The translations under genes and the position numbers were made by a program. A DNA stretch of 64,000 nucleotides from a virus, in IMG/VR virus record IMGVR_UViG_3300036823_000120, positions 1 to 64,000 of that record; one strand, written 5' to 3'. The stretch's first letter is position 1, and each line of letters starts with the position of its first letter. Shown in pieces: positions 3,737 to 56,086 of the stretch. The notes below the pieces were generated by a model that was not told the origin of the DNA, ran no database searches, and worked only from the letters and a program-made list of their open reading frames with translations.

Positions 3737-5047
3737 ATGGCCGCTAAGAAGAACATCAACGTAAGCGTCCCGACAGAAGCTCTTTTGAGCGTCAACCAAC
3801 TTACGGTTGACCCGTCGCTCAATGTGCGTATGCGGAAGGGATCGGAAGTCTATGGTGTGAAAATCCAAAACGATGGTTACGATCTCGATACAATGATCGC
3901 ACAAGTGTTAGAACGTGGCAAGATTCTGGAAGCCATTCACGTTTCTCTCCGAAAGGATGGAACGTATGTGGTTCTCCGGGGCAACCGTCGAACTTTGGCC
4001 GGGCAATCGCTTCTCTCGAATCCAGATTTAGCCGATGATATCCGCAAGGAACTGAACGCTACTCGCGTTCTGGTCTTCAAGGAACTCACGGCTGAAGAAG
4101 AACGCGAAAAGATCATGGATCAAAATTCCAAGAGCTTTTCACGAAGCGAAATGATTCGCTACGCTTGGTCGCTTCGCCAGCAAGGGCAAAGCTTCGAGCG
4201 TATCGCCGTGGATAACTTCGAGATGTGGGGGCAATTTGGGCGAAATGCCCGAACGCTCGCAAAACTCGCGGATATCCGTGCGATTCCGGCCGGAGACATC
4301 GACACGCGACGCAAAGCCATCAAGACTTGGCTTCGCGGAACAGTTGACGAGTACGTGATTCCGGCTTTTGATCTTGGGCCAGTCGTTCAGAAGGCATGCA
4401 TGCTGTCCGAAATGGAATTGGACGGTCTTCTGAAAGGTACGGATGATAAGCCGTACTTCTACACGACCCGTGATCCGCAATCACGTCTGAAAAAGCTGGG
4501 ACAAGCACGAGAGAAGGATGGTTCCAAGTGGACTCATCAGTTGGGCGGCGAGAACTTCAATGCCCAAATCGAGGAATATCACAAGACTGATTTTCCGACC
4601 GCAGGTGCGGCTACTCCGGCTGTTGAAACGCCTAAGAAGCGTCCCAGCGTAGCAGAACTCAAAGTTCACATGGGTACTGCCCAATCGTCTCCGGCACGAA
4701 TGGCCTACAGTATTGCAATCGGTAGTACGGAACCTGAGTTCATCAGTCGGGATCAATCTGTCTCTCTCCTCGAAGCAAAGGAAACGCTTTTCCTTCAATT
4801 CGCTGAGACGCTCAAGCCTGATGCGAGCGTGAATCTGAGAGATATTCTGACTCAGATTTTCTTGAGGGACAACATCCTCGACTTCAAGCAAATGCTTGAA
4901 AAGCATTCAAATGCCGCTCCAATTGAGACGGCGCCAAACAACGAAGCCCCGAAAGGGGCTGATTCAGAAGTGGAAACCGATTCGGATACCACGGAAACGG
5001 GAATTCCCGAAGAGGAAAATGGTACGTTTCCGCTAGTCAGTAAGTGA
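3737..5047 (+). CDS. ParB/Srx N-terminal-domain protein, 436 aa, acidic C-tail
   Basis: DPSLNVR...EAIHVSLRKDGTYVVLRGNRRTLA (GxRR motif). Confidence 0.8.
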   Translation: MAAKKNINVSVPTEALLSVNQLTVDPSLNVRMRKGSEVYGVKIQNDGYDLDTMIAQVLERGKILEAIHVSLRKDGTYVVLRGNRRTLAGQSLLSNPDLADDIRKELNATRVLVFKELTAEEEREKIMDQNSKSFSRSEMIRYAWSLRQQGQSFERIAVDNFEMWGQFGRNARTLAKLADIRAIPAGDIDTRRKAIKTWLRGTVDEYVIPAFDLGPVVQKACMLSEMELDGLLKGTDDKPYFYTTRDPQSRLKKLGQAREKDGSKWTHQLGGENFNAQIEEYHKTDFPTAGAATPAVETPKKRPSVAELKVHMGTAQSSPARMAYSIAIGSTEPEFISRDQSVSLLEAKETLFLQFAETLKPDASVNLRDILTQIFLRDNILDFKQMLEKHSNAAPIETAPNNEAPKGADSEVETDSDTTETGIPEEENGTFPLVSK

Positions 5048-5154
5048 TAATTAGGAATCGTTGCGGCCACTAAAAAGATACTCTAGTGGTAATGGTGATG
5101 TGTCTACAATTCAAATGCTCCTTACTCTATCCCGTACCAAACAAGGGAGAAAGT

Positions 5155-5355
5155 ATGACTCAAAAACTTAAGTTTCAACTCATCAATGATGCTCGCACAA
5201 ACGACATCAAATTGATTGTTGAAGTTCACACAATCGAAGATGATCCCAATTGTTTGGATGTGACTATCACATCTGATCGTGGTTCAATCGTCGATGCGTG
5301 TCGCGTGCTACACTCTGAGCTTTTCACTTGGATTGAAGCCAGGAAGGACTGGTAA
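5155..5355 (+). CDS. Hypothetical protein
   Basis: AGGGAG RBS before ATG at 5155. Confidence 0.65.
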   Translation: MTQKLKFQLINDARTNDIKLIVEVHTIEDDPNCLDVTITSDRGSIVDACRVLHSELFTWIEARKDW

Positions 5356-5358
5356 ATA

Positions 5359-5667
5359 ATGAGTGAGAATCGAATCTTGTCTCTTGTGTATGACATCTTC
5401 GCTAGTATCGAGGATGAAGCACAATTGACAATCTTCTACAATCACGTTGCTGAGTTCAAGGGAAAGCTTGACAACATGAACGTGTTAGAATGCGGCTTCC
5501 GTCAAGATGAAATCGCATTGGTCTCTCTGGTAATTTTATCAGGTATCATTATACCTGATGGCAAAATCAAAATGATTAAAGCCCGTAGAGAACGGACAGG
5601 CGAATCATTGACCGCAGTTGTGCCGGAAGCTAGGAAGCTTTTCGCACAACGCAATTGGCAATGGTAG
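5359..5667 (+). CDS. Protein with C-terminal ribosomal L7/L12 CTD-like segment
   Basis: KIKMIKARRERTGESL resembles KIxxIKxxRExTGxGL. Confidence 0.5.
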   Translation: MSENRILSLVYDIFASIEDEAQLTIFYNHVAEFKGKLDNMNVLECGFRQDEIALVSLVILSGIIIPDGKIKMIKARRERTGESLTAVVPEARKLFAQRNWQW

Positions 5668-5733
5668 TGGTCTCAAACCGGGATAGAGTAAGCAGCATTT
5701 GAATTGAGCAAGAAACAAACCCAATGGTGAAAC

Positions 5734-6326
5734 ATGAACAAGTTTCATGCCAAACTGTTTGACAGTAATGGAAAGCTACAAATTAGCTTTCAAACTAGTA
5801 ATCTGTCAAACATGCTCTCAATCATTCAAATGGAATTGAATGATTGGAAGAATCCGCTAAATGTCACACGCATCGATGTATATGAGTACAGTACATTCAT
5901 ATACAGAAAGAACATTGGAGTTACAAATGCACTATGAAATTTGGCGTGACACGAACTACAAAGCCATGACATGCGGCGAGTTCCATTCTGCCCTAAAATG
6001 GCTTATTACACATGCCAAAGACTATGATCCAAAAGTATTGACTTGGATAGACACTATGGCAGGATGCGTAATCACGCTTCAAGTGAAGACACCAAAAACT
6101 ACCACCTTCTACCGCATCATTAGATGCGAAGAAAGTGGGAACGTTACAAATGCAACGTGATATTGGAACAAATCTCATTTTCTGTGCAGTATATTGTATA
6201 GTCATATTTATGATATGGCTATTCAAATGTAGTACATTGAAATGGATCATGTTACTAGCGATAGCTCTTTGTAGCTATAAGCTCACTACAATGCTTTTAA
6301 AGAAACCCGCCATTTCTGGCGGGTAG
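5734..6326 (+). CDS. Three short hypothetical ORFs (5734-5937, 5927-6160, 6150-6326; last is hydrophobic)
   Basis: Overlapping start/stop chain ending at a terminator. Confidence 0.6.
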
Positions 6327-6330
6327 TTTC
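6305..6330 (+). terminator. Probable intrinsic terminator
   Basis: ACCCGCCA-TTTC-TGGCGGGT stem at operon end; weak U-tract. Confidence 0.55.
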
Positions 6331-6394
6331 ATTACAAATCAATATTTGTCTCAAAACCCGTGGCACATGTCGCGGGTATCTTTGCTTATGAAGT

Positions 6395-6550
6395 AATGCA
6401 AGTGACATGTACCGCGTAACAAGTGACACATAGTAAAAGCAAATAACAAGTGACACGTACCGTGTAACAAATGCAAGTGACACGCACCATGTAACAAATG
6501 CAAGTGACACGTACCATGTAACAAATAGTAAAAGCAAATAACAAGTGTCA
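6395..6550. repeat. Iteron-like array of CAAGTGAC-containing units (about 27 bp)
   Basis: AATGCAAGTGACACGTACCATGTAACA-type units interleaved with ATAGTAAAAGCAAATAACAAGTG. Confidence 0.9.
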
Positions 6551-6989
6551 AAAATCATGTCTCACAACAATTCAATATTAAAATGGTCTATGTAACAACT
6601 AATAGACAATGAAAATCATCTCTTGTTTCAAACACGTTTCAAGGGTAGTAAGCTTTGCAAAAGCTTTGCCTTAAATCGTCAAACCTATAACAAACACAAA
6701 AGTTGTACAACATTATTAACTATTACTAGACTCTATACTACTGTATGACGACTTACAACTTTATTTCTAGTTCATCATATAGTAGTAGTCTAATTGGCAA
6801 CATAAACAACACTTCTAATGGAAGTCAGAATTCCTAGAATCGTCCCAGTGAGCCGATCGCCCAAAAGTGGGTCAGTACACATCTAACCAGAGATTTGCCC
6901 GCCTGAGCGATGCCAGGCCCCTTAAACGGCTCATTAGCCCTTCGCTCGCCAAACGACCCGAACCCCTGGACGTGGCGTTCGCTCAAAAG

Positions 6990-7064
6990 AACAAATGTTG
7001 TACAACTTTTGAGTTGCTTTTGTCAAAATAACAAAAGCAACTCAAAAGTTGTACAACATTTGTT
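6990..7064. repeat. Perfect 34-bp inverted repeat with 7-nt loop
   Basis: 6990-7023 is the exact reverse complement of 7031-7064; an 18-bp part recurs at 6697-6714. Confidence 0.97.
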
Positions 7065-7065
7065 T

Positions 7066-7791
7066 TTACACGTCAATTGACGAAATGACTGCTATTGGAC
7101 CATACAATGAAATTAATTCATGTATAGTTCCATGATACTTAACACCACTTAGAAGACCAAACATGAACTTATGATTTTTACATTTTGCTTTAAATGTTAG
7201 GTCTCCACTGATTAATTCTACGCCTCGATTTAGTAAATTACCTAAATGCTCAAATGCTGCTTTCTTCTCAAAATGCTCATCTGTTGAGCCAAGTCCCCCG
7301 TCTCTAACAATCTCTGGCATGTCACAAATGGCCGAATCACCAACAATAATTTCTACTATAGGAATTAATTCTAATTTGAATTGAGCAATGGCAGTTCCAG
7401 CCGGTAATACGAAATGCCCACTCTTTCGCCACTCTTGGATAAATGCTTTTTGCTTATCGAGAAATGCATCTTGAGACAGTAAATATTCAATAAAATCGGG
7501 AGATGGTGCATTGAAAGTCATGATGATAAGCCACTCGTCCTTTGGCTTACAAAAATCGCTATCTATACAGCCGGCATGAACTTCAAGTCCAGCTAATGCA
7601 CGTCCCGATTTCTCACAAATACGTGCCCGCAAGTTGGGACTCATCTCAGCAGTGATTCCGGTCTTAACCGCTGTCATCACTCCCGGATAGAACACAGCAT
7701 CAGCAGAGCTAAAAATGTCATACCAACCCGCCTGCAACGTAGCTTTTGCAATGTGGCCAGTCTTCAGTTTGAAGAACAAATCCTGATTCAC
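7066..7791 (-). CDS. dut: Trimeric dUTPase with insertion and C-terminal extension
   Basis: AGWYDI, EKSGRA, AGCIDSDF, IAQF, RDGGLGST motifs. Confidence 0.85.
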   Translation of the reverse strand: MNQDLFFKLKTGHIAKATLQAGWYDIFSSADAVFYPGVMTAVKTGITAEMSPNLRARICEKSGRALAGLEVHAGCIDSDFCKPKDEWLIIMTFNAPSPDFIEYLLSQDAFLDKQKAFIQEWRKSGHFVLPAGTAIAQFKLELIPIVEIIVGDSAICDMPEIVRDGGLGSTDEHFEKKAAFEHLGNLLNRGVELISGDLTFKAKCKNHKFMFGLLSGVKYHGTIHELISLYGPIAVISSIDV

Positions 7792-8514: not shown

Positions 8515-8829
8515 TTAGGTCTCCTTTTTAGCTGAAAGATATTGAATAACTTCAATTGCAAAATCATTAGGAGACTCAACTAATGCTTTTGATATAAATT
8601 CTTGCTGTTCATTTTGATTCAATTTAGCTAATAGGTAGCCAATTGATACGCTTATACGCTCATTTTTCAGCAAAATAGTACAAGCATTATTCAACTTGTA
8701 AAGTTGAAGATAAAATATAACATATTCTACGGTTTGTTGGTACGCTTTTACTACTTCAGACAACGTGAGTCTACTGTTTTGGTTCACAAAATCAGCTAAT
8801 TCACGGCTATTTTTAGTATTTGCTTGCAC
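8515..8829 (-). CDS. Stand-alone paralog of the ParB central HTH region
   Basis: LQLYKLN..ISVSIGYLLAKL..EQQE..SPNDF aligns with LQLVKLN..IGLANAYALAKL..KQDE..SPNEF of 54739-55830. Confidence 0.7.
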   Translation of the reverse strand: MQANTKNSRELADFVNQNSRLTLSEVVKAYQQTVEYVIFYLQLYKLNNACTILLKNERISVSIGYLLAKLNQNEQQEFISKALVESPNDFAIEVIQYLSAKKET

Positions 8830-9777
8830 AAAGGCTCCTTTAAGTTAAGCTTATCACACCAAATATGGTGTTTCTCCTTGATGTGAAGTCTCACTTTAGT
8901 CTCAAAAGCATATAGATCTTTGATGCAAGGATCTTTTAAAGCGTGTCCTTGCATTGAAGAATTCAATCTAGTCAATGCAATAGCACAAATCAGTGGAATT
9001 TGGTCATCCATTACCAATTTAATTGCTTTTGAGACAAGTTTCTTGAACTTAAGCATCTTAATGACCCATTTTGGGTCTCTACAAATCTGCTTATCACTGA
9101 TGGTTAGCACGTTACACTCAACTTGGGAACGTCCCAATGCTTTACAAGCACGAAAACTCATTAACAATCATGAACCATTCGCCACGTTCCACGACAGAAA
9201 TTGGTTGAATAAGTCCAATCTCACGTACACTCGATACCAATTCTTTCATTCGGTCCTCATAATCCTTCGTGCAACTTTTGGATCGCAAGTAACAGCTTCT
9301 TCCAGATACAATCTTTGAGTAATAAGATGCAATTTGCTTAAAGCCAATGCCGTAAGCAAAGCAATTTGATCTTGTCTGACCAAATGAAGCACTTCTCAGA
9401 CATGAAAAGTGGCTCAAAGTGCTTACCATCAGATCGCTTAAATACTTTATCTGAGGGTTTTTGCTTAAAATTGCCCCATATTTCATTGTTACATTTGGTT
9501 TCAGCTTACACAAGAATCCACCTCCCCATACTGAGGAGCAATTGACAAGATTTTGACCATTAAAATAGAGCATTGCTCCATCACCAAGCGACACAAAATC
9601 GGCATAATTCCATTCTGTATCAGCAAATGTGTATACGCCAGCCTTCATTGCAGCTTCTTGGAACGTGTAACGTCGGTCAGATTCACGCTCATAAGCAACA
9701 TGAATAGGTGTGTTGCATTCAATATCAATTGATATATTTATCATATGTGCGTCCCTCTGAATCTGTGTAAGACACAT
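8796..9777 (-). pseudogene. ParB-domain gene split by a frameshift at about 9155-9165
   Basis: ELVSSVREIGLIQPISVV..MIVN in one frame, FRACKALGRSQVECNV in the next; GxxR motif lost at the junction. Confidence 0.7.
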
Positions 9778-10008
9778 TGATTGTGGCTTTGACTTTGATG
9801 AAAACTGAGAGCATTAAAGTCTCACTTATAGGCCAATAGCCCTTTTTATCGATGAAAAGCACGATTCCATCGCCCAGAGACAAGAAACAAGGCTCTTTTG
9901 TATCTACCAGAGCATAAAGCCCTGGATTAAGAACAACCCATTCATAGTTGTTCCATGTGTTTGAATAAAAATAGAATGGCTCATCAACATTTACTTTGAT
10001 TTCAAACT

Positions 10009-10440
10009 TCATTTCAACACCAGAATGTGAATCAGATTGGCGATATTCTTATCTAAGCATAGGGGTATCAGCCAGTTCAGGTTAAATATGCAAGCACTTG
10101 ATAGTGGATGCACGGCATACCAGTGAACTGGTTCATTTTCATCTTGATTTTCGGGAATCTTATAAGTCTCTAACGTCTTTGTAAAGACGTGAAGCTTATA
10201 ATCACGTGACTCTAACACGGCAACGTGATTAAATTCTGGAATAATGAAGCCAGTTTCTTCCTCAATTTCTCGAACTATGGCATCGTGAGGAGTTTCTCCA
10301 GGTTCAATGTGACCACCTGGAGCATTGAGATGACCAGCTTGCCAATCGGGACGTGCTTTGCGTATCAAACATACAAGCTTTTGTTCAGGATCAAATACAA
10401 AAGCAATGCTATACATTTGAATCGTGCGAGTTTTAGTCAT
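10009..10440 (-). CDS. Nudix hydrolase (MutT-like)
   Basis: GGHIEPGETPHDAIVREIEEETG Nudix box. Confidence 0.9.
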   Translation of the reverse strand: MTKTRTIQMYSIAFVFDPEQKLVCLIRKARPDWQAGHLNAPGGHIEPGETPHDAIVREIEEETGFIIPEFNHVAVLESRDYKLHVFTKTLETYKIPENQDENEPVHWYAVHPLSSACIFNLNWLIPLCLDKNIANLIHILVLK

Positions 10441-15126: not shown

Positions 15127-15128
15127 GA

Positions 15129-17027: not shown

Positions 17028-17028
17028 T

Positions 17029-19834: not shown

Positions 19835-20107
19835 CTATTCTACCTTTTGTTCAAGTGTGACTGATTGAATCTTTGTTTGATTAGCTTGTGTTAAAGGACC
19901 ACGCATCGCGTTAATTCTATCTAGTTCCTCAACAAAACGATCAATATTGTACCCTAAATTCAAAAATGCTAAGTGTACAATATTGTACGGCAAACCTTCA
20001 ACTAAAGCTTTACCCATACAATAGCTATCAACTAATTGAAGTTTCTGCTCAACTGCAATTTCTTCAGCACGAGACAGAAGAGTGTGAAATCGGACGGTAA
20101 GGTTCAT
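19835..20107 (-). CDS. Stand-alone Clp N-terminal-repeat-like protein
   Basis: LT..F..LL..A.EIA......VDS.....AL......V...F..LG pattern. Confidence 0.55.
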   Translation of the reverse strand: MNLTVRFHTLLSRAEEIAVEQKLQLVDSYCMGKALVEGLPYNIVHLAFLNLGYNIDRFVEELDRINAMRGPLTQANQTKIQSVTLEQKVE

Positions 20108-20327
20108 TTTGAATTATCTCCTCAACAGTGTCTACTTCGATTTGAGGTAAATTAAGAGTTTGAGCTGCCTTAACTCTTAATTGGCCATCAAGGACTTTTT
20201 TACCCTGTACCAGTATACGAGATTTGGTACGTACATGCAAGCCCCAAATTACTTCTGCTTCAAGTTGAAGCAAGTCTGGAACTGACCTTAATTTAGGAAG
20301 TTCCAGATCGGCTGGATTAACCATCAT
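20064..20327 (-). CDS. Minimal ParB/Srx N-domain protein
   Basis: ILVQGKKVLDGQLRVKAAQTLNLPQIEV. Confidence 0.65.
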   Translation of the reverse strand: MMVNPADLELPKLRSVPDLLQLEAEVIWGLHVRTKSRILVQGKKVLDGQLRVKAAQTLNLPQIEVDTVEEIIQNEPYRPISHSSVSC

Positions 20328-21818: not shown

Positions 21819-22286
21819 TTAATCATTTGAAACCTCATTTAAATTTGCAAAGTCTCCAAAGTAAAGTAAAGCTGCTTTGTTATAAGCTTTTGCTGCAAGT
21901 ATTTCATCTTTGAATACTCCTAGATGGATAAGCTTACCATTTAATTTAATCGAAGCTTTCCATTTTCTTTGGTTAATACTCCAAGATACACCTTTATATC
22001 TTGATGTACAACCTTGTTTCTTTTTAGAGTTTGCTTGATTTTGGCTATTATTAGCTTCTCTTAGATTTGATCGTTGATTATTCAGCTTATTTCGATCTTT
22101 ATGATCTGTCATTAGCTTATAACCAAGTCTCTTACCTAAGATAACATGCAAATATTCATGTTGTCTGCATGTTGTCCTTACATATCCTTCTGTGTCTAAG
22201 CACCAAGTTTGAAAAGCAAACTCTAACCGATCCTCGTCACTAACTAAAACAATTACATTTGAATTAGTCAAAGTGAGGGTTGTCAT
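21819..22286 (-). CDS. HNH-AP2 homing endonuclease
   Basis: DHKDRNKLNNQRSNLRE; SRYKGVSW..KWKASI..HLGVF..AAKAYN. Confidence 0.9.
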   Translation of the reverse strand: MTTLTLTNSNVIVLVSDEDRLEFAFQTWCLDTEGYVRTTCRQHEYLHVILGKRLGYKLMTDHKDRNKLNNQRSNLREANNSQNQANSKKKQGCTSRYKGVSWSINQRKWKASIKLNGKLIHLGVFKDEILAAKAYNKAALLYFGDFANLNEVSND

Positions 22287-28086: not shown

Positions 28087-28166
28087 TGCCGAGGGAAGGA
28101 TTTGAACCTTCACTTGAGTCCAAGTCTTCCATTTGGACGGCTGTGCTACCGTTACACTACCCCGAC
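28087..28166 (-). tRNA. tRNA-like RNA with non-canonical anticodon arm
   Basis: Acceptor GTCGGGG/CCTCGGC, D arm GTGT/GCAC, T arm GAAGG-TTCAAAT-CCTTC; middle GTCCAA-9nt-TTGGAC. Confidence 0.7.
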
Positions 28167-34216: not shown

Positions 34217-34291
34217 TGTCCCTGGTGGGATTTGAACCCACACTAAACAGATTTTAAGTCTGTTGCCTGCTACCAATTGGGCTACAGGGAC
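34217..34291 (-). tRNA. tRNA-Leu(TAA), short variable loop
   Basis: Complete cloverleaf; ACAGA-CTTAAAA-TCTGT; GTGGG-TTCAAAT-CCCAC. Confidence 0.9.
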
Positions 34292-42500: not shown

Positions 42501-44124
42501 GTTCCAGATTATCGCTTAAGTTGACGTAACAAATGGTATGTTTGCAAGTCTAAAACTGCATCCATTTGACCATATAGTGTAGCAAGACGCTTTGTAACAT
42601 ACTCAAATAGAATTGTAGCTTCTTCATTTTTAGCTACGATATATTTGAGTAATATTTTCAAAGCTTTTTCAACACGCATCACACCATTTATTTCAACGCG
42701 CTTCGCAGCGCGTTGATTAGAGGCACGAGTTGCATCATAAATATGATATGCTAGTCCTAGCTTTTGCAGGATAAAACATATATTTTCTATGATGATTTTA
42801 TTTGTGTTGACAATTTTAATCCCTACATTGTAGGAACCTTTGCTACCTGGACTCATTGAAAAGCAACCTTCACCATCAAGAATACCACTTAACCAACCAA
42901 GCTCAAAATCTGTTACCTGCGGATTGTCCATTGCAATATACTTGGGATTTTTGCATTAGAAGCACCCAAGCCTTTAGGTACTTTCCAGCATATAGCGAGA
43001 TTGTTCACTGATATATTACTATATCAGGCCGCTAGGATTAACGGATTCAGTCCACTTGCCTTATCTTTTCTAACAGGAATTGGCTTACCAATTCGCCCAA
43101 AAGGAAAGTTTTTCAGGTTCAAGATTCCTGGCTCTCCTCTAACTGTTATACGCTTTGCTACTTCTCCTAACTGTTCAAAGTCTTCTGGATTATATAGAAC
43201 CGCTGTATTGTTAGACATCCAGCCCCATTCTTGGCGTTCAGGATTCATGTCATAGTCTTTAAGATTCATAAAAACAGGATCATGAATATCGCCCTTCATA
43301 AGTTCTGCACTACGTCTAACGTTACCAGCAACGACGCAAACTCCGAGTATATTACCTATGTCTGCTTTTAATCTGACTTCGTCAATTGATTCAGATTCAA
43401 AAAGCATTTCCATATTTTCGTGTAATCTTTTCAAAGGGACTGGGCCAGAAGCTTTTCCGCCAAACCCTTTAATTAGTAGACCTTCTTCACGAAGTTTGTC
43501 GTATTTGAAAATAGGCTTTCGTCTATTTGGCTGAGTATAAGCTTCGACAAGAAGCTTTACACTATCAGCCCAACCTTCTCGTGAATCTGGAATTTCAAAG
43601 ATATAAGTTCCAACAGGCTTATATCTAATTAATCCAGTTCGTTTTGGTTCAAATCCAACACCAACACCAAGCATCAAAGCATCCATCATCCAATTCAAAT
43701 CATTGGCGAGAGTATCATTATCGCCCAAAACGCAATATCCGCAATTGTTAAGAGCCATAGAGCCACGTTCATATATGAACGATGTACCCATAGCCCATAG
43801 ACCCCGACCACCAGGAAACCAATGCATATTGAACAAACTGATTGCCATTCTATAGGCATAAGCTTGCCAGTATTCTTCGTCCCATCTGATATAGTTTCGA
43901 GCATAAAAGTCTTTTCTAATCGAGAAAGTTCCATTAATTACCCTTGTTACAACATCAGCCCAATTTTCCTGTCCACCATTTGTTTTTATGCGACTATATG
44001 TCCTAAAGAAAACTAATTCACCATAGCCGTCATAACCAAAATCTGGCTTCATAAGCTGAAGTCTTGAAGCAAAATCAAGACTTAGTGAGAAGTGTTCATT
44101 TACATACTTAGTGGGGACCACCAT
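39547..44124 (-). CDS. nrdJ: Class II (B12-dependent) ribonucleotide reductase; exons 44124-43041, 42381-42042, 41191-41182, 40290-39547; 725 aa spliced
   Basis: PGGRGLW, NNCG, AGNVRRSA; splicing restores NPCGEIPL and TTIKPGGTTPKL; exon lengths sum to 2178 nt in frame. Confidence 0.92.
40291..41181 (-). mobile_element. Group I intron 3 of nrdJ
   Basis: Exon ends CGGU pairing IGS GCCG; terminal G; CAGAGACTA and GATATAGTCC core elements. Confidence 0.9.
40324..41076 (-). CDS. Two-domain LAGLIDADG homing endonuclease
   Basis: WFSGFFEGEGSF and WLAGIYEAEGSF. Confidence 0.9.
   Translation of the reverse strand: MDNPQDIHWFSGFFEGEGSFSFRERQRRGNNVGFFFEPKISISNTNKIAIELCEKILQQKLINYSKTKSIRTGKIDCYDLSICSNVAISLFVDYFKSLIECDKVRLECFQQFVNSRMQRTRYSLHNDKELEIVEKHNQWRSSETTREVSYSYSRDWLAGIYEAEGSFTNHSWTTSPIIQLCNTNFSIICKAQYILQQDWINPHIHKFDVTEKHQSFWRLTICGKKKYNRFVEKYASCFRYRHSELEKIKI
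41192..42041 (-). mobile_element. Group I intron 2 of nrdJ
   Basis: Exon ends CCAU pairing IGS GUGG; terminal G; same core elements. Confidence 0.9.
41226..41936 (-). CDS. Two-domain LAGLIDADG homing endonuclease
   Basis: WLVGILDGEGSF and WLIGILEAEGSF. Confidence 0.9.
   Translation of the reverse strand: MDNQQATSWLVGILDGEGSFDKNRLRISNTEIDLIHQCEDIISSFGISVSISSTQRGKRKREYDLAINGRIKCLCFLEELKTKLYCRQFHLESSETTCECSADFWWLIGILEAEGSFHISCHMSRNNTVNYNPEITVCSTNTKIIDKTVKTLYSLGLSWHISSYIPLKHSPYKVITIHGYKRVQRFFQIINEFQTKKYKLKSSLLKEFVNLRLLQNIKEPYTKRQHEIFYALRNVI
42382..43040 (-). mobile_element. Group I intron 1 of nrdJ, within the catalytic Cys codon
   Basis: Exon ends CCGU pairing IGS GCGG; terminal G; T|GC rebuilds Cys of NPCGE. 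Confidence 0.9.
42509..42931 (-). CDS. Single-domain LAGLIDADG homing endonuclease
   Basis: WLSGILDGEGCF. Confidence 0.9.
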   Translation of the reverse strand: MDNPQVTDFELGWLSGILDGEGCFSMSPGSKGSYNVGIKIVNTNKIIIENICFILQKLGLAYHIYDATRASNQRAAKRVEINGVMRVEKALKILLKYIVAKNEEATILFEYVTKRLATLYGQMDAVLDLQTYHLLRQLKR

Positions 44125-45902: not shown

Positions 45903-46247
45903 TCAGCTAACATTGTTTTCAACTGACTTAGTTTCATTTCTTCTTACCTGAATAATTAAAATAAGCAAATCATCTTTTGATACACCAGTGTAATTTCTAA
46001 TTCCTAGTTGAGCAGCTAAAGCTCGTAGCTGACGAATAGTTTTATCGCAAACTTCATTACGAAGTACATTATCCATCCATTCTCTGACGTATTCAAGATC
46101 AGCATCTTGAATTGCTCGCTCTAAGCGGGGATTATTTGAATCCAATCTCAGACATTGAGTGAATGATACTGAGTGAACTATTCTCTCTAAAGCTCTAAGA
46201 TCATTGAATCTCGATCTTATTCGATATTGTACATCAGCTATATTCAT
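45903..46247 (-). CDS. Protein with C-terminal Rho-N-like helix-extension-helix domain
   Basis: KTIRQLRALAAQLGIRNYTGVSKDDLL. Confidence 0.65.
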   Translation of the reverse strand: MNIADVQYRIRSRFNDLRALERIVHSVSFTQCLRLDSNNPRLERAIQDADLEYVREWMDNVLRNEVCDKTIRQLRALAAQLGIRNYTGVSKDDLLILIIQVRRNETKSVENNVS

Positions 46248-46696
46248 AGAGTGTTAATGCATGCATATGCTCCAAAGTGCTTAATAGCAGCTTCGTTATA
46301 AGCTTTTGCTGCATCCTCCTCTTTATCAAAGTAACCTAACCTCATAATTTTGTTATTAACAAAAATATAAGAATCCCATTTCCTATATAATTTGTTATAA
46401 CTTACTCCTTTATATTTGGAGCTACAGTGTGTTTGTCTTTTAGACTTATTCTTTTCATTGTCGCTTCGTGTTGCAGCTCGCAAATTAAATTTTTGATTAT
46501 TTAACTTATTACGATCAATATGATCTATAATTTGAAAATTTAATTTGACTGTTAAAAGCTTATGCATATAGGTATTATCGCCATTGTCTCTGGCATACCC
46601 ATTACATAAGTACCAAGTTCTTAAGGCAAAAAGAAGCCAATCTTCATCATCTACGAGTATAAGCAAATCTGAATTTATTAAGCTTATTGTCTTCAT
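46244..46696 (-). CDS. HNH-AP2 homing endonuclease
   Basis: DHIDRNKLNNQKFNLR; SKYKGV; LGYF..E..AAKAYN. Confidence 0.9.
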   Translation of the reverse strand: MKTISLINSDLLILVDDEDWLLFALRTWYLCNGYARDNGDNTYMHKLLTVKLNFQIIDHIDRNKLNNQKFNLRAATRSDNEKNKSKRQTHCSSKYKGVSYNKLYRKWDSYIFVNNKIMRLGYFDKEEDAAKAYNEAAIKHFGAYACINTL

Positions 46697-49216: not shown

Positions 49217-50143
49217 TTATTCACTTTTATCACCAACTAATGCCTTACTTACCCAAGAAGGCATAATAAAATCTTTACCTTCTTTCCTAGCTGCTGCTTG
49301 AACTTCATTAAGCAATTCAATTGTACTAATCTTTGCGGTACACCATGCTGCAAATCGAGTTGCTAAACACGCACCAAGAGTATCATAAATGAGACCACCC
49401 ATTTCAACTATCTCTGGTCCCTTTCGCTCACGAGTTTTCATTGCGTCGCTACTTCGTTGAATAGAAGGAACAACGCTGAGAGATTCTCCTTTTTCGCGCT
49501 TTTCTTTGACTTTCTTCACAAATTCAATTTGTTGTTCAACTTTTCGAAGACTCGCACAGTGTTTGATTTGTGCTTGAGTAAGCAAACCAGCAGCGGCAAC
49601 TGCTTGAATTTCCTTCGGCAAACTCAAAAGAGCTTTACGAATTTGCACCCATCCACGAGAAGTACCAGTGAGATCGGCAACTTCAACTTCATTGAAGTGA
49701 ATATCAAAGTAATATTTAATTGCATAAGCTTCTTGAAGAATATTTAATTGCTTACGATGCAAATTCTCTCTTAGGTTCTGTGTTCGTGCGGCTGTTTCAT
49801 CAAGACCTTCTTCAATGAAACATGGAATCTTTGAATGCTTCTCAGCAACGACAGGATCAGCATCTAAGGCGTTAATTTCAAATGCCGTAAAACGTCTATG
49901 TCCTGCCACAATACGGTATTTCTTACCTGATATAGCATCGTGTGGTTGTACAGTAATTGGAGTATCAAGCTTTCGGTCCTTGATATCTCGTGCAAGATCA
50001 AGAACATCGATTGGGCTTATGTTTCCACGACAATTGAAGTTTTCATCAAGAAAAATATCTTCAATAGGAATTAAAAATACTTTGTAGCCAGTTATAGGAT
50101 CAATATCAACTGTTTCTTGATTATTTGCAATTGCTATAGACAT
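49217..50143 (-). CDS. ParB-family protein (N-domain plus HTH)
   Basis: PITVQP..YRIVAGHRRF; ENLHRKQLNILQEA; EVADLTGTSRGWV. Confidence 0.9.
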   Translation of the reverse strand: MSIAIANNQETVDIDPITGYKVFLIPIEDIFLDENFNCRGNISPIDVLDLARDIKDRKLDTPITVQPHDAISGKKYRIVAGHRRFTAFEINALDADPVVAEKHSKIPCFIEEGLDETAARTQNLRENLHRKQLNILQEAYAIKYYFDIHFNEVEVADLTGTSRGWVQIRKALLSLPKEIQAVAAAGLLTQAQIKHCASLRKVEQQIEFVKKVKEKREKGESLSVVPSIQRSSDAMKTRERKGPEIVEMGGLIYDTLGACLATRFAAWCTAKISTIELLNEVQAAARKEGKDFIMPSWVSKALVGDKSE

Positions 50144-50297: not shown

Positions 50298-52931
50298 CTA
50301 GTTTCTAGAATCACTTGTTACTCCCATTTCATGGGCTTTTGCAGCTTCTTGTTGAGCTTGTTTCATTTCTTCTAGTACCAAACCCATACTCAAACTTTGC
50401 AAATCACGTTTGCGTTTGAGATTTTTTAATACATAAGCATCAGTTGGAAGATGGAGCAAATCAATTATAGTAGCTCCTCTTTCTACTGACATACCTGCCC
50501 TATGTATGCGATCTTCTGATTGCAATCTAGACTCACCATTGAAATCATTGCTGAAATAAATGATGGCTTTTGATGCCGTCAGTGTCAGGCCCATTCCCGC
50601 TGATCCAGCGTGCCCAACAAAAGCTATCTTTTGATCGTATTGCTTAGGATTCTGAAAGACTTTCAAGAATTCTACGTTATCTTTTGGCAAGAAGTTACCA
50701 TATGGCACCCATCCACGTCCGTCCACACGCATCACTTGCCAACCAAGCTTAGTCACATGGTCACTAACTCGATCAATTGTTCCTGTGAAAGCTCCATAGA
50801 TAACAATTCTATTCTCATCTTCAAAATCATCTGAGAGAAGTTCTGTAAGAGTATCAAATTTTGGACTATCGACTGTTTTTACTTCTCTCTTAATAACATT
50901 AGTTGTTCCGCGGCCTTCGCAAGCAGGACACTTAATTTTTTCATTAAGATCGTTATCGAAAAGCTCTCTATTGCCTTTACAAGTTGTACAAGTTGCAGTA
51001 GATTCGACAGTTTCAATATATTGAAAGCCATCTGATAACTCACGAAGCTTTGTAAGAGCTTCAATTGCATTGCGACAACCAACTTGTATCAAACTAGCCG
51101 CACGAATCATCGGCAGACTTGGCTTTATATTAATTTCTCGATATACCTTATCAGGTAGATCAAGACAATCTTTCTTGTGTTGAACTAATACAAGTCCACT
51201 CATTCGCCGATAAAGTTGACTAATTTCATCTTTCAAAGCTATATATTCATGGAAGTTTTCTTTGTCTTCTTTGGCATAATGATTAGCATGAGAACTAAGC
51301 TTACCACATTTATTACAGATTGCTTGACCACCATCTCGCCATGCAATGAATTTCGGGAACCGACCACCAGTGATATCACCAACGTATTCAGTAACAGCTA
51401 ATCGTTCCTTGAACTTGTTGACATCACCTTCAATCAAGAAGCCTGGACAAGCAGTTTCACATTGCCAATACCAATCTACAGGGGACTTGGGAGCGGGAGA
51501 ACCACTCATAAGTACAATGTATGCATCGTGTCCATAGTTATTACGCATACTTTCAGCAACATGAAAAGCTGATTGTGAGCGTTGAGCAGTTGGTGTCTTT
51601 AATTTTGAAGATTCATCGAATATAATTCCACGAGGTGGCATTTTCCGTGGAATCCAATTTTCAACTGTTTTCTTCAATTCATCATAAGTCATAAATATTG
51701 GACGTATGAAAGATTTCCAATTCCAAAACTCAAGACGAACACTTGCAATTGATGATTTTGTTCCAATGTACCACCAATCTGCGATACCACTTCGTTCCAT
51801 TGCCTCTATTGAGGCAAGAGTCTTTCCACAATTATGTACTACAATACCATTTGCGACAAAATTTCTATAAGGATCATCACAAATAACATCATAGACAAAT
51901 AATTCTCCATTATTTTCAATACTTATAATTTTATCTTTATGTGGTATAAATTGACATTTCTCAGTATGTAGATTTACATAATTTGTTTGGCCATGTAATT
52001 TTGCATGCTTACTACTTGAACTTAATAGTTCCAAGTTTTCAATTTTATTATCATTTTTAATTTCATTTTTATGATGAACTATCTCATTTTCTTTAATATA
52101 TCGTCCAAGATGTTCTTCCATAATTAAAATGTGTTCATATACTCCACCTGTAGACCATCTTGGATGCTTGTTTTTTAAGCCTCCAACTCTAATATAGCCA
52201 TCTTTATCTTTCCATTTACCATTAACTAAAATTTCATCACCAATATTTAGCTTTTCTGCTGAAATATAAGTATTATTATTTACAGCAATTTCGTGATCTA
52301 AAGTTACACAAATTTCATAACCTAATTTTGTTTTTATTTTTAAAGTAGACTTTTTACCTTTGCTTAAGACATTTTTAATTTTATTTAACTTTAATATCCC
52401 AGCACAATTACTTCGAATATAAGTTTCTATTCCTAAATCCCAGCATCTGCCTTTTAAATTATGAAATTTCTCAAAAAGATTTTTTAGTTTTATCTCAAAT
52501 CCTTTTCCAGCTCTATTTACATGCACGAGTGCTTCACCATCAACGCATCCCATTTCCGCAGCTAGTATACATTGCTTACGTAGCAAAATATGACCAATCT
52601 CATATTTTTGATGCGTATATACAGGTCGTTGAAAAGTTAGCTTATCAACAAATGATTCAAGTGAAGCGTCGTATCGAGAAAAAGGATTCTTACCTTCTAA
52701 GTGTTCAATACGAAATTCATTTCGTCGTGACTTATTAACGCGCCAAACTTTCATTGGATTATCTTCGTCTCTACCAAGCCATTTTGAACCTTGCATCACT
52801 TTCAATTTATCTTTGAATTCGAAAGCTGAACTAATATAATAATACTTTGAATCTTCATAAATAGTAGCTGGATGACGAAACTGCTTTCCTTCAAACTTAG
52901 TTTGTCTTTCAGCTATAAAATTAATTGCCAT
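50298..52931 (-). CDS. SNF2-like SF2 helicase with intein
   Basis: EMG|CGKT Walker A after splicing; FDESS; MSGSP; GLTLT; QSEDRIHR. Confidence 0.9.
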   Translation of the reverse strand: MAINFIAERQTKFEGKQFRHPATIYEDSKYYYISSAFEFKDKLKVMQGSKWLGRDEDNPMKVWRVNKSRRNEFRIEHLEGKNPFSRYDASLESFVDKLTFQRPVYTHQKYEIGHILLRKQCILAAEMGCVDGEALVHVNRAGKGFEIKLKNLFEKFHNLKGRCWDLGIETYIRSNCAGILKLNKIKNVLSKGKKSTLKIKTKLGYEICVTLDHEIAVNNNTYISAEKLNIGDEILVNGKWKDKDGYIRVGGLKNKHPRWSTGGVYEHILIMEEHLGRYIKENEIVHHKNEIKNDNKIENLELLSSSSKHAKLHGQTNYVNLHTEKCQFIPHKDKIISIENNGELFVYDVICDDPYRNFVANGIVVHNCGKTLASIEAMERSGIADWWYIGTKSSIASVRLEFWNWKSFIRPIFMTYDELKKTVENWIPRKMPPRGIIFDESSKLKTPTAQRSQSAFHVAESMRNNYGHDAYIVLMSGSPAPKSPVDWYWQCETACPGFLIEGDVNKFKERLAVTEYVGDITGGRFPKFIAWRDGGQAICNKCGKLSSHANHYAKEDKENFHEYIALKDEISQLYRRMSGLVLVQHKKDCLDLPDKVYREINIKPSLPMIRAASLIQVGCRNAIEALTKLRELSDGFQYIETVESTATCTTCKGNRELFDNDLNEKIKCPACEGRGTTNVIKREVKTVDSPKFDTLTELLSDDFEDENRIVIYGAFTGTIDRVSDHVTKLGWQVMRVDGRGWVPYGNFLPKDNVEFLKVFQNPKQYDQKIAFVGHAGSAGMGLTLTASKAIIYFSNDFNGESRLQSEDRIHRAGMSVERGATIIDLLHLPTDAYVLKNLKRKRDLQSLSMGLVLEEMKQAQQEAAKAHEMGVTSDSRN
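51831..52547 (-). mobile_element. 239-aa intein carrying an HNH endonuclease
   Basis: Starts CVDGEA; TLDH block B; ends NFVANGIVVHN|C; internal VHHKNEIKNDNKIENL. Confidence 0.92.
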
Positions 52932-53878: not shown

Positions 53879-53971
53879 TACTTTCTCCTAAAAGTTAAAA
53901 GTGCCTGTACCGTATTACACGGTATTCACATGTGGAGGTTACAGGCTTATACCTCTACCCAACAAGGGATA

Positions 53972-54667
53972 TTATTCTCGTGATACAGCACCTTCAGGCT
54001 TTTTATCCACGAGTTCAACTTTGGTCTCAGGAGGATTCTTAAATTCCTTTAAGACATTATGATATTCTTCAATATTTGGTGTATCAAATTGTTGCGATGC
54101 TGATACAATTTGTGGACCATACCAATTATATTTCTTTGTTTCTATGAACTTACTAGAAATGATTGCACACTTGTCAATCAAAGCTTTAAAGTTCGCGGCT
54201 TCATTCTTTGCAGTCTTTGACGCCATCAGATACGTTGCAAATCCATGACCTGGGATGAAAATCAAAAATTGTGGACCACACATTGCACCATCACCAAAAA
54301 TACCACGATCTGCAATTTCACGAACTTTCTTGAAGCCTTCACTATTAGGATCATAGAAAGAAATTGGCTTATCGCCAGAAGTAGACAATGCAATGGGTCT
54401 CCATGCACAAACCCAACATTGGACATTTTGTCCAAGGTCAATAATTGCTTTTCCCTTGAAAATTGCATGGTTACCAACTCTTACATCGCCACGCTGAACA
54501 GGCACACTCGTAGCACTCATAAGCTGAACATATGGAAGATAATTTCCAATTGTTGCTAAATCGTCGAATGCTGCTTCAGTATACCTGTCAGGCACCAATT
54601 CCGAAGACTTAGGCATTGCAGCAATTGCATTACTTGCTGAATTCGGATTTACAATCTCAGTGTTCAT
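53972..54667 (-). CDS. Hypothetical replication-module protein (possible SSB)
   Basis: 231-aa ORF between ParB and helicase; LPYVQL and WYGP motifs; function from context only. Confidence 0.45.
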   Translation of the reverse strand: MNTEIVNPNSASNAIAAMPKSSELVPDRYTEAAFDDLATIGNYLPYVQLMSATSVPVQRGDVRVGNHAIFKGKAIIDLGQNVQCWVCAWRPIALSTSGDKPISFYDPNSEGFKKVREIADRGIFGDGAMCGPQFLIFIPGHGFATYLMASKTAKNEAANFKALIDKCAIISSKFIETKKYNWYGPQIVSASQQFDTPNIEEYHNVLKEFKNPPETKVELVDKKPEGAVSRE

Positions 54668-54738
54668 TCATCACCTTTCAAAGTCAAGATCATTGGATGT
54701 TATAAGCTACCACGAAATGTGGTAGCTTACGTTAAAAC

Positions 54739-55830
54739 TTACTGGCCATTCTGAGGCACAAAGGACGGGTCAATTGGTTGATTCAGATTGACAGGTACAA
54801 CAGGGTGACCATTAACGCCAACACCGGCAGTAGTTGTAACTGCTTTTGCGGCCTGATCTTTCTTTTGTTGGCGTTCTGCTTCACGCTTCTTCTTATCCTC
54901 ATCACGTTCCTTCTTACGTTGCTCATACCGATGACGATCAAATTCGACAGATTCAGGATCGAGATGCATTGAATACTTGAGAGCAATTTCAGCAGAAGCT
55001 AGGCACATAAGCTTTACTTCATCAGGTTGATTCTGAACCTGTTGAAGAACAAGGGTTCCAACCTTAGACGAAGTGAATTCTTTCTTCGCAAAAGCGGCAA
55101 GTTCTTCCTTGAGAGTCACAGGACGTTGAAGTCGAGGAACAGGAACAAACCCTTCCTCAGCCGGAGCACGTCCTTCAGAGCGAGCATCACGAATCGCCTT
55201 ATAAGCAGAAGTTGCGATTGGGATGAATTCATTCGGGGACAACGAAATTGCCTGATTCGCAAGTTCATCTTGCTTTTCAGGAGGCAACTTGGCGAGTGCA
55301 TAAGCATTCGCCAACCCGATGTCACCACTATCAACCAACTTTTGGATAGGCTCATTAAGCTTCACGAGTTGCAAGCGATCACGTAGCCAAGAGTTCGACT
55401 TACTAAGACGTGAGGCCAACTCAGTCATAGTTAAAAGCGGATTTGCACTCATGATCTTGATGAGTGCCTTTGTGTATTGTACCGCCTTAGTTTCAATCCT
55501 ATGTACATTGGCAAGAATCTGAGCTTCAATCAAATCCGCGTCTTTCAGCGAACCAATTTGTGCAGGGATTTCATTAAGACCTGCATCCATTGCAGCATTG
55601 AAACGGTGTAAGCCATCAATAAGACCGTAAAGGATTTCACCACTTGCAGGGTCTTTAATTTCTCGCACCAAAATGGGATTCATAATCCCACGCTTTTTCA
55701 CACTGTCTACAAGTTGGATATAATCTTCATCTTGCTTATCGACAGCGGTGCGAAGTGCTTCACTGTTCTCACGAATCTTCTTAAGAGGAATCTTTGCTTG
55801 TGTCGTATTCTTGAAGTTAAAATCGTCCAT
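54739..55830 (-). CDS. ParB-family protein (N-domain, HTH, charged C-terminus)
   Basis: LVDSVKKRGIMNPILVR; LIDGLHRFNAA; ANVHR; ELASRLSKSNSWL. Confidence 0.9.
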   Translation of the reverse strand: MDDFNFKNTTQAKIPLKKIRENSEALRTAVDKQDEDYIQLVDSVKKRGIMNPILVREIKDPASGEILYGLIDGLHRFNAAMDAGLNEIPAQIGSLKDADLIEAQILANVHRIETKAVQYTKALIKIMSANPLLTMTELASRLSKSNSWLRDRLQLVKLNEPIQKLVDSGDIGLANAYALAKLPPEKQDELANQAISLSPNEFIPIATSAYKAIRDARSEGRAPAEEGFVPVPRLQRPVTLKEELAAFAKKEFTSSKVGTLVLQQVQNQPDEVKLMCLASAEIALKYSMHLDPESVEFDRHRYEQRKKERDEDKKKREAERQQKKDQAAKAVTTTAGVGVNGHPVVPVNLNQPIDPSFVPQNGQ

Positions 55831-55831
55831 T

Positions 55832-56086
55832 TTATAATTCTGGCTTCTTGGGTGGTGGTACAGTTGCAATCTGGATGGGTAACTGCGTTATCCCTAATTC
55901 CAGTGCAGCTTGATACCGATAATAGCCATCTATAATGGTATATAAGCCATTCGTCTTATGCTGTACAAGAAGTGGCTCAAGAATACCATCAAGGCGGATA
56001 TCTTCTCGTAACTCGACGAAAAGCTGTCCGCTAGGCTGTGAAGGTTTGGGTGGTTGCCTGATTTCCATGATGTTAACTATTAACAT
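55832..56086 (-). CDS. Minimal ParB/Srx N-domain protein
   Basis: LREDIRLDGILEPLLV..YTIIDGYYRYQAALELG. Confidence 0.85.
   Translation of the reverse strand: MLIVNIMEIRQPPKPSQPSGQLFVELREDIRLDGILEPLLVQHKTNGLYTIIDGYYRYQAALELGITQLPIQIATVPPPKKPEL

Follow-up and report, generated by a model that had tools for sequence, protein, structure and literature searches.

The complete 94,582-bp (94.6 kb) genome of a phage (IMG/VR record IMGVR_UViG_3300036823_000120) carries seven loci related to ParB. These ParB/Srx-fold genes fall into four separate lineages, and the phage, which appears to be of lytic type, lacks a partition ATPase. We consider it most likely, with middling confidence, that their products are orphan nucleotide-switch proteins that bind the phage's DNA.

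Results

Seven loci and four lineages

The seven loci lie within the window, the 64,000-nt stretch of DNA analyzed here (positions 1 to 64,000 of the record), and their products are designated A to G (Table 1). A first-pass annotation had called all seven ParB-related, and each is borne out by at least one test: Pfam and NCBIfam searches for B, C, and E; structure models for A and D; paralogy for F; and, for G, scores on read-through of a frameshift together with an intact homologue, P0025. Comparison by phmmer and BLASTP placed C, E, F, and G in a single expanded paralog family, and A, B, and D in separate, mutually unrelated lineages.

Table 1. ParB-related loci and repeat arrays in the window.
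Feature	Coordinates	Strand	Description	Basis
Direct repeats	3559..3672	+	Three 25-nt direct repeats directly upstream of A	Repeat search (repeat family D14)
A	3737..5047	+	Divergent orphan ParB, 436 aa	AF2, Foldseek, VIA-align, 14-protein family
Right-hand array	6390..6550	-	Five M1 (ACGTGTCACTTG) and two M2 (TTATTTGCTTTTAT) copies	k-mer and mismatch scans
F	8515..8829	-	HTH-only protein, 104 aa, paralog of C residues 120-202	phmmer, BLASTP, Pfam
G	8796..9297	-	Decayed copy of a C-like ParB of short type (~197 aa)	Read-through scores, homologue P0025
D	20064..20327	-	Predicted single-domain ParB/Srx-fold protein, 87 aa, motif DGQLR	AF2, Foldseek, VIA-align
B	49217..50143	-	Canonical-type orphan ParB, 308 aa, N-domain and HTH	Pfam, NCBIfam, PDB sequence searches
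C	54739..55830	-	Canonical-type orphan ParB, 363 aa, N-domain, HTH, and Lys/Glu-rich C-terminal part	Pfam, NCBIfam, PDB searches
E	55832..56086	-	N-domain-only paralog of C, 84 aa, motif DGYYR	ParB_N, BLASTP against C
Iterons	56604..56785	+	Twelve direct copies of GCTTAT[C/G]AG, 32-nt unit	Repeat search (repeat family D1), pattern count

B and C are canonical-type ParB proteins

Profile scores were read against the curated cut-offs of 58.45 bits for TIGR00180, 26.3 bits for ParB_N (PF02195), 22.6 bits for HTH_ParB (PF17762), and 22.3 bits for KorB (PF08535). Protein C scored 54.7 bits with ParB_N, 37.3 bits with HTH_ParB, and 81.9 bits with TIGR00180, and protein B scored 25.6 bits (26.5 in a six-frame scan), 35.1 bits, and 62.7 bits, respectively; both pass TIGR00180. 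Since A, D, and F gave no match to TIGR00180 and E reached only 31.1 bits, membership of this family holds for B and C alone. Pfam detected no C-terminal dimerization domain.

The gene for B is located between a DNA polymerase A gene and a helicase gene. Aligned with the Caulobacter, Thermus, and Myxococcus ParBs, its Box II (GHRR) and Box III (ENLHR) retain the arginines and the ENxxR motif, with histidine in place of the Box II glutamate; judged from these residues, B appears to keep the arginine pair and ENxxR motif needed for CTP binding. The gene for C is transcribed divergently from the primase-helicase gene. Here the same alignment gives GLHR for Box II and ANVHR for Box III, so that the GxRR pair lacks its first arginine and Box III its glutamate, and the nucleotide pocket appears degenerate. 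The corresponding Box II motif is GNRR in A, GQLR in D, and GYYR in E. Because C, D, and E all lack the first GxRR arginine, and C also the Box III glutamate, a CTP switch is doubtful for these three proteins; nucleotide use and specificity are not reliably predictable from sequence (PMC12704722).

A is a divergent ParB in a high-GC island bracketed by repeats

Pfam and NCBIfam searches of A returned no match, and in PHROG it matched phrog_1033 ("ParB-like", E 5.8e-6). An AF2 model (pLDDT 76) was compared with known structures. In Foldseek against the PDB, ParB, KorB, and Noc ranked at the top (E 1.9e-5), and VIA-align superposed A on CTP- or CDP-bound ParBs with Z 10.4-10.9 and rmsd 2.1-2.4 A over 91-93 residues, the score of 10.9 covering residues 13-130. 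Residues 7-291 aligned with pNOB8 ParB, KorB, and a ParB-parS complex at Z 9.2-10.2. The protein is laid out as an N-domain with RGNRR, a ParB-like helical DNA-binding region to approximately residue 287, a C-terminal part that is again helical, and an acidic tail. R81, G82, N83, R84, and R85 are invariant across the 14-protein A family; DQNxKxFxR stands where ENxxR is expected. Being invisible to PF02195 and TIGR00180, family A would escape an HMM-based survey of ParBs.

The gene for A resides in a 6.6-kb island of 46% GC (37% elsewhere in the genome). Two arrays of the motifs M1 and M2 bracket this island: the right-hand array (Table 1) and a larger one at genome positions 93950-94365, outside the window, in inverted orientation. 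By k-mer and mismatch scans, all 15 M1 and all 10 M2 copies are confined to these two arrays, which are the best candidate loading sites for A; the 25-nt direct repeats 5' of the gene are possibly an operator or promoter region. The island of A is likewise high in GC in G002, a 92.7-kb relative, and repeats of different sequence surround A in relatives too; the array motif of the G001 type recurs ~100 nt upstream of A.

An iteron array lies beside C and E

The 12-copy iteron array occupies the region between E/C and the primase-helicase gene, and an additional copy is found at 56102, just upstream of the ribosome-binding site (RBS) of E. This array is a candidate origin or operator and may be linked to C and E. 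The corresponding intergenic region of G002 has an inverted repeat of ~170 bp instead of iterons. An equally tenable reading of the repeat arrays in this genome is that they mark a replication origin or a packaging site, or are promoter arrays, and have nothing to do with the ParBs.

Single-domain proteins and a decayed copy

The first-pass annotation had also described proteins reduced to one domain, and these are genuine: E is an N-domain only, F an HTH only, and D a single ParB/Srx fold. The stop codon of E lies one base ahead of the ATG of C. Its ParB_N match scores 36 bits over residues 21-76, and it is 32% identical to the N-domain of C (residues 37-95; E 1.5e-10); one homologue (86% identity) was found. 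Protein F, preceded by a strong RBS (AAAGGAG), begins at the Box III position and has no N-domain. It scores 19.3 bits with HTH_ParB, under the cut-off, and its relation to C comes from phmmer (E 1.6e-7) and BLASTP (30% identity, E 1.7e-10); BLASTP identity to P0025 is 25%. An ESM Atlas lead for F, with 24 of 30 matches in the HTH_ParB set, was matched by one for D.

Sequence-level searches of D against Pfam, PHROG, and NCBIfam gave no match, and its assignment as a ParB/Srx-fold protein is by predicted structure only. The AF2 model (pLDDT 82) returned ParB N-domains or Srx for all top Foldseek matches (E ~0.03). Against the whole PDB, the top nine VIA-align matches were all ParB/Srx folds (Z 6.3-4.0), whereas unrelated entries reached at most 3.2; model residues 1-77 align to these folds, and the structural neighbors include Srx, SerK, SbnI, and Osa. 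Six homologues of D share 72-84% identity.

The locus of G had been annotated as one split ParB gene at 8796-9777. Its ParB origin stands for ~8796-9297 only; the first ~100 codons of the ORF at 9142-9777 come from another family of small proteins, that of the paralogous ORF at 9725-10012. A frameshift at a TTTT run (9153-9156) falls inside Box II and the DGxRR motif is lost, while a deletion of ~42 residues has removed Box III along with the first half of the HTH region. When the TTTT run is read through, the match to ParB_N improves from 16.5 to 25.1 bits. The intact homologue P0025 (197 aa), encoded in a relative, has DGIRR and scores 43.4 bits with ParB_N and 58.7 bits with TIGR00180. An upstream ORF runs into G, and no RBS precedes the TTG at 9167. 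G is thus a decayed pseudogene.

No partition partner or canonical site was found

The absence of ParA, first noted for the window, extends to the complete genome: a six-frame search found no match to AAA_31 or CbiA, and the deviant Walker A motif (KGGxxK[ST]) is absent. Nor did the complete genome yield a tubulin/TubZ match or a ParM-like candidate. The N-terminal ParA-binding motif is defined as (L/F/I)G(K/R)G(L/F/I) (PMC12704722); neither this pattern nor LG[KR]GL matched any of the seven products. Canonical parS sites with up to three mismatches occur in the phage genome at chance level (5 matches, 3.5 expected), and no recurrent palindrome of at least 12 bp was found there, although sites particular to this phage may exist.

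The genome has overlapping contig ends, compatible with a circular map, and encodes its own polymerase, primase-helicase, ligase, ribonucleotide reductase, and many homing endonucleases, as well as a Dam methylase, a NUDIX protein, a dUTPase, and a 5'-deoxynucleotidase-like gene. No integrase was found in it, and no repressor or lysogeny module was recognized among the phage genes; judged by its gene content, the phage looks lytic.

Only A, B, and C are conserved in a relative

The first-pass annotation had suggested surveying related phages for the same set. In G002, this search succeeded for A, B, and C, which are retained at the same positions, and not for D, E, F, and G, which are absent; E, F, and G may thus be dispensable. 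The G002 orthologues of B (40% identical) and C (44% identical, with the same motifs) score 92.9 and 76.0 bits with TIGR00180, and A also has an orthologue at the same genome position in G001. With only A, B, and C kept in G002, A, B, and D in separate lineages, and G a decayed pseudogene, the set is not the one coherent system of seven parts that had been envisaged.

Discussion

Comparison with known ParB-fold systems

The term "undescribed", initially applied to these loci, was too strong, as orphan ParBs on mobile elements and single-domain phage ParB-CTPase folds of ~100 aa have been reported (Kaljevic et al., PNAS 2025, PMC12704722). Like those orphans, the genes described here sit on a mobile element without a neighboring parA or a ParA-binding motif, and D and E, at ~85 aa and almost all fold, resemble the single-domain class. 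Unlike in that report, one genome here joins four lineages, seven loci, an HTH-only piece, and a decayed copy, and family A is not recognized by PF02195 or TIGR00180. From ParABS systems (Spo0J/ParB, P1 ParB), the phage proteins share the N-domain fold, the HTH, Box II and Box III motifs (in B), and TIGR00180 membership (B and C), but ParA, its binding motif, canonical parS, and a Pfam-detectable C-terminal dimerization domain are all missing.

B and C share the N-domain plus HTH architecture of Noc, the ParA-independent paralog of chromosomal ParB, and Noc structures are among their best PDB sequence matches; however, their TIGR04285 scores of 60-84 bits are far under the Noc-specific cut-off of 315 bits, and the genomic context is that of a phage. 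KorB of plasmid RK2, a sliding clamp that depends on CTP and has become a repressor acting at long range (PMC11790492), offers a second parallel as a ParB-fold DNA binder whose regulatory role does not need ParA. The two-domain model of A aligns with KorB in VIA-align (Z 9.2, 179 residues), and the repeated sites at module boundaries recall KorB operators. By contrast, Pfam KorB scores are sub-threshold (14.9 bits for B, 19.5 bits for C), the repeats are direct motifs whereas KorB-type sites are palindromic, and no KorA-like partner was identified here; RK2, moreover, carries a gene for the ParA protein IncC. The activators of phage thymine dioxygenases (5mYOX) are likewise phage-encoded ParB homologues serving outside segregation (O'Toole et al., PNAS 2026, PMC13229309). 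They can do without their conserved NTP-site residues, which may parallel the degenerate pocket of C. They have no DNA-binding domain and are encoded next to a 5mYOX gene (PMC13229309), whereas B and C have HTH domains and the whole phage genome gave no match to Tet_JBP (PF12851) at E <= 1.

Possible roles of the phage proteins

We favor a reading in which A, B, and C would bind specific sites on the phage's own DNA as nucleotide-gated clamps or repressors, in the manner of Noc or KorB, and would control replication or gene expression rather than segregation. ParA-independent ParB-fold switches and single-domain phage forms have precedent (PMC12704722, PMC11790492). B, with its CTP-binding motifs kept, would act from its position between the polymerase and helicase genes, C beside the iteron-rich, origin-like region ahead of the primase gene, and A by loading at the inverted M1/M2 arrays that flank its island. 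E, F, and G are lineage-specific duplicates of the C family, and D is an independent, lineage-specific protein with a single domain; E and F may act as competitors at the dimer interface or the DNA site of C and so modulate it. A bolder version, which we think quite unlikely, would have nucleotide-gated ParB-type clamps repurposed as genome-control switches of this phage group, with A at M1/M2 insulating or silencing the island, C at the iteron origin, and E (N-domain) and F (HTH) antagonizing C by capping its dimer interface or occupying its DNA site, a natural "split ParB" regulatory circuit.

An enzymatic or anti-defense role is an alternative: some or all of the proteins, with C, D, and E of the DGxxR type as the foremost candidates, might be nucleases or kinases of the ParB/Srx type or might assist in DNA modification or counter-defense as accessory factors. 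The first-pass annotation had considered nuclease clades for the long proteins; the full-length ones group with the CTP-switch ParB, Noc, and KorB proteins rather than with nuclease-only clades. No enzymatic domain is fused to any of the seven, the genome lacks a Tet_JBP dioxygenase, B and C have complete ParB HTH domains and pass TIGR00180, and the second domain of A aligns with the DNA-binding region of ParB/KorB. We regard such a role as unlikely overall, even though PHROG matches include a "ParB-like partition nuclease" and a ParB-methyltransferase family, Srx, SerK, SbnI, and Osa neighbor D, Dam methylase and the nucleotide-metabolism genes named above are present, and known phage ParB folds act as 5mYOX activators or methyltransferase fusion partners (PMC13229309, PMC12704722). 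Interference with the host, the decoy idea of the first-pass annotation, is a further alternative, in which the phage ParBs, particularly E, D, and F, would mimic host ParB or Noc and disturb chromosome segregation, nucleoid occlusion, or ParB-dependent condensin loading in the host. B and C are indeed closer to chromosomal ParB, Spo0J, and Noc than to plasmid ParBs, and close relatives also retain single-domain versions; yet the phage genome shows no enrichment of host-type parS, E and F have their paralog in the phage protein C and not in a bacterial ParB, and there is no ParA-binding motif with which to hijack host ParA, making this very unlikely. Equally improbable, in our estimate, is true partition of a plasmid-like prophage or pseudolysogen, with A and the flanking arrays serving as centromeres for host ParA or an unrecognized motor. 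The missing integrase, contig ends compatible with a circular map, and short-repeat arrays bracketing A, as at many plasmid centromeres, fit that scenario, but the lytic appearance, the lack of a recognized repressor or lysogeny module, and the failure to find ParA, ParM-like, or TubZ-like candidates or a ParA-binding motif do not.

As a general phenomenon, orphan and single-domain phage ParBs are already in the literature, and since the phage is uncultured, immediate use is limited. The wider question that this phage group addresses is the role of orphan ParB-fold proteins on mobile elements. To it, the group brings three orphan ParBs that are conserved at fixed genome positions, including family A, which standard HMMs do not see. 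With the natural single-domain derivatives and the candidate DNA sites, these make up a manageable group of hypotheses that binding and nucleotide assays could address.

ParB-related proteins encoded in the window

The first-pass annotation listed seven ParB-related loci, and all seven are confirmed as such by domain scores, paralogy to C, structural models of A and D, and, for G, an intact homologue. The long proteins B and C each contain ParB_N and HTH_ParB domains (Pfam), pass the NCBI model TIGR00180 (62.7 and 81.9 bits, respectively; cut-off 58.45 bits), and have Spo0J, ParB, and Noc as their top PDB sequence matches, spanning both domains; for C, an ATG start was preferred over an upstream TTG as the better fit. 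The single N-domain-type protein E scores 36 bits against ParB_N and is 32% identical to the N-domain of C. The HTH-only protein F, which starts at the Box III position and is preceded by a strong ribosome-binding site, shares 30% identity with residues 120-202 of C.

The third long protein, A, has no Pfam, NCBIfam, or PDB-sequence match, D belongs to no sequence-level family, and profile searches of both families against PDB sequences gave nothing significant. The A family has 14 members with an invariant RGNRR motif. Its AF2 model (pLDDT 76) aligns with CTP/CDP-bound ParB N-domains (Z 10.4-10.9, rmsd 2.1-2.4 Å over 91-93 residues) and, over two domains, with pNOB8 ParB, KorB, and ParB-parS (Z 9.1-10.2). 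D has six homologues (72-84% identity) that keep a DGQ(L/M)R motif. When its model (pLDDT 82) was searched against 48,161 PDB representatives, the top nine matches were all ParB/Srx folds (KorB, Z 6.3; Srx, 6.0; SerK, 6.0; SbnI, 5.2; PadC, 5.0; and others), with unrelated rows at 3.2 or below. In absolute terms the Z values are modest, and it is the uniformity of the matches that points to a ParB/Srx fold for D. A weak resemblance of D to S4-domain proteins (E 0.73) was dropped, as the fold searches uniformly gave ParB/Srx. When D was compared with E by hhalign, the alignment was limited to the DGxxR stretch of 20 residues.

G had been described as one split gene at 8796-9777. When one base of the TTTT run at 9153-9156 is skipped, the two frames are joined, and ParB_N then scores 25.1 bits over 59 residues, up from 16.5 bits over 24. 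The first ~100 codons of ORF 9142-9777 are of other origin: they belong to a different family of small proteins and have a paralog in ORF 9725-10012. A tandem pair of such paralogs (9725-10012 and 9744-9460) lies upstream of the ParB relic and is fused to it in frame. In a full HMMER scan of 1.8 billion representatives, one relative was recovered: P0025, encoded on a 7.7-kb contig, is an intact 197-aa ParB with a DGIRR motif (ParB_N 43.4 bits, TIGR00180 58.7 bits) and 32% identity to C. Compared with P0025, G has lost the DGxRR motif, is frameshifted at that motif, and has a gap of ~42 residues that takes out Box III and half of the HTH region, namely its first half; no ribosome-binding site precedes the TTG at 9167. 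On these sequence features, G is best read as a pseudogene.

Features of the window and adjoining genome (window positions unless stated)
Feature	Position	Strand	Remarks
A, long ParB-like protein	3737-5047	+	
B, long ParB-like protein	49217-50143	-	
C, long ParB-like protein	54739-55830	-	
D, single N-domain type	20064-20327	-	
E, single N-domain type	55832-56086	-	
F, HTH only	8515-8829	-	
G, ParB-derived part	~8796-9297	-	
A island	1-6390 and genome 93950-94582		46% GC vs 37% in rest of genome
tRNA-Ile(TAT)	30868-30941	-	
tRNA-Leu(TAA)	34217-34291	-	
Third tRNA-like match	28087-28166	-	Rfam only
Class II ribonucleotide reductase, three ORFs	43024-44124, 42023-42397, 39547-40293	-	region 39547-44124
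LAGLIDADG endonuclease ORFs separating the reductase ORFs	42509-42931, 41226-41936, 40324-41076		32-51-nt repeats at each insertion
Helicase gene with HNH-endonuclease intein	50298-52931	-	Intein_splicing + HNH_3
HNH-AP2-type homing endonuclease region, three paralogous copies	21819-22409, 24010-24469, 46244-46696		common 50-75-nt DNA repeats, families D2, D3, D5

Partner genes and nucleotide-pocket motifs

The absence of ParA, noted at first for the window, extends to the whole genome: six-frame scans for ParA and TubZ relatives (AAA_31, CbiA, and tubulin) gave no match while controls were detected, and no ORF contains a deviant Walker A motif. The ParA-binding motif is found in none of the seven products, and canonical parS occurs only at chance level.

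Nucleotide-pocket motifs were read from alignments with Caulobacter, Thermus, and Myxococcus ParB. B (GHRR and ENLHR) retains the arginine pair and ENxxR, with the Box II glutamate changed to histidine, and is a plausible nucleotide switch judged from these residues; A (GNRR) is perhaps another. Such a role is doubtful for C (GLHR and ANVHR, the same in its counterpart in the relative G002), D (GQLR), and E (GYYR). According to a published survey, nucleotide specificity is not predictable from sequence (PMC12704722).

Relationships and conservation

C, E, F, and, via P0025, G show significant paralogy to one another; no significant similarity links A, B, or D to this group or to each other. 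The 92.7-kb IMG/VR genome G002 is collinear, with protein identities of 30-55%. There, B again lies between the genes for the polymerase and the helicase, C and the primase gene are divergent, and A follows the structural module. Only two ParB_N matches occur in G002, and D, E, F, and G have no counterpart in it. In a third, partial genome (G001), A is kept at the same position. The recurrence of D and E is limited to close relatives, and a 96.5-kb closer relative carries homologues of A (65% identity) and D (84% identity). Taken together, the paralogy, the synteny with G002 and G001, and the narrow spread of D and E indicate that the set consists of three conserved orphan ParBs, the products of lineage-specific expansion and decay in the C family, and D, rather than one conserved seven-gene system.

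No close relatives were found among GenBank phages by megablast of 46-56.5 kb or by tblastn with the polymerase or A, and tblastn with C returned only ParBs at <33% identity. In IMG/VR, single-protein scans with C, the polymerase, A, and P0025 and a scan with the D alignment gave no match; the A alignment recovered G001 and G002. The A alignment gave no match in genome contigs and only distant A homologues (29-48% identity) in metagenomes.

Repeat arrays and GC-rich elements

The GC-rich A island spans 6.6 kb, and its G002 counterpart is likewise elevated (50-55% GC vs 41%). Searches of A's ten neighbours against Pfam and PHROG gave nothing, and the island ORFs other than A have no Pfam or PHROG match and no G002 or G001 homologue. 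Inverted arrays of ACGTGTCACTTG (15 copies) and TTATTTGCTTTTAT (10 copies) flank the island on both sides, one at genome 93950-94365 and the other at window 6390-6550, and neither motif occurs elsewhere in the genome. Repeats of different sequence also surround A in G002 and G001-type contigs; one array motif of the G001 type is found again ~100 nt upstream of A. The region that separates E/C from the primase gene holds 12 direct copies of GCTTAT[C/G]AG, with one further copy at E's ribosome-binding site; the equivalent region of G002 contains a ~170-bp inverted repeat. The arrays and the GCTTAT[C/G]AG region are typical of origins or operators and are candidate sites; we infer every link between them and the ParB proteins.

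On either side of several A-island genes are inverted repeats of 25-56 nt (3343-3367/5064-5088, 5107-5134/5679-5706, and 2523-2578/2707-2762), and the island includes tandem small-protein paralogs (755-1171 and 1168-1593) with a common 50-nt repeat at 86% identity. Two GC-rich elements of ~350 bp lie at 56191-56544, between E and the iteron array, and at 6693-7067, just past the right-hand array. Inverted repeats (44 nt and 22-37 nt) border them, and one has an 81-nt core with 79% complementarity to the other. They have no Rfam match and are possibly miniature mobile elements or genes for structured RNAs.

Genome context and selfish elements

The whole record, of which the window covers the first 64 kb, is 94,582 bp and is rated 100% complete (IMG/VR). 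Its first 120 bases recur as its last 120, and the map is therefore circular or terminally redundant. A perfect 22-nt inverted repeat at 85-133, where this overlap breaks down, is a possible cause of the break in the assembly. The proteins encoded are a family A DNA polymerase, a helicase that bears an intein, a D5-type primase-helicase, Dam methylase, an exonuclease, class II ribonucleotide reductase, ligase, a NUDIX protein, and dUTPase; a tyrosine integrase is absent. Given this gene content and the lack of near GenBank phage relatives, it looks like a divergent lytic-type phage. Rfam matches are confined to tRNAs. Three tandem 21-nt units at 32132-32199 each contain a short hairpin (GTGAGTT-GAAACTCAC).

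Selfish elements have heavily colonised this genome: the reductase gene has three LAGLIDADG insertions, the helicase gene has an intein, and HNH-AP2 paralogs are present as well. The three reductase ORFs together match one 733-aa ORF in G002, and the insertions are probably three group I introns related to one another, or homing elements of a similar kind. The helicase has 877 aa vs 660 aa in G002. This load fits a history of duplication and erosion.

Relation to known ParB systems

The proposal of a single undescribed system is only partly supported: the loci are ParB-related, but G002 keeps only A, B, and C, and orphan and single-domain phage ParBs have already been published. Orphan ParBs that have neither ParA nor the ParA-binding motif are common, with an enrichment on mobile elements, and single-domain ParB-CTPase folds of about 100 aa are reported from phages specifically (PMC12704722). 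KorB is a ParB-fold clamp able to work as a regulator (PMC11790492). Other phage ParBs can activate thymine dioxygenases (PMC13229309); the present genome differs in that it encodes no thymine dioxygenase. What is new here is family A, the number of ParB lineages in one genome, the array-bracketed island, and the natural occurrence of N-only and HTH-only forms derived from a single ParB.
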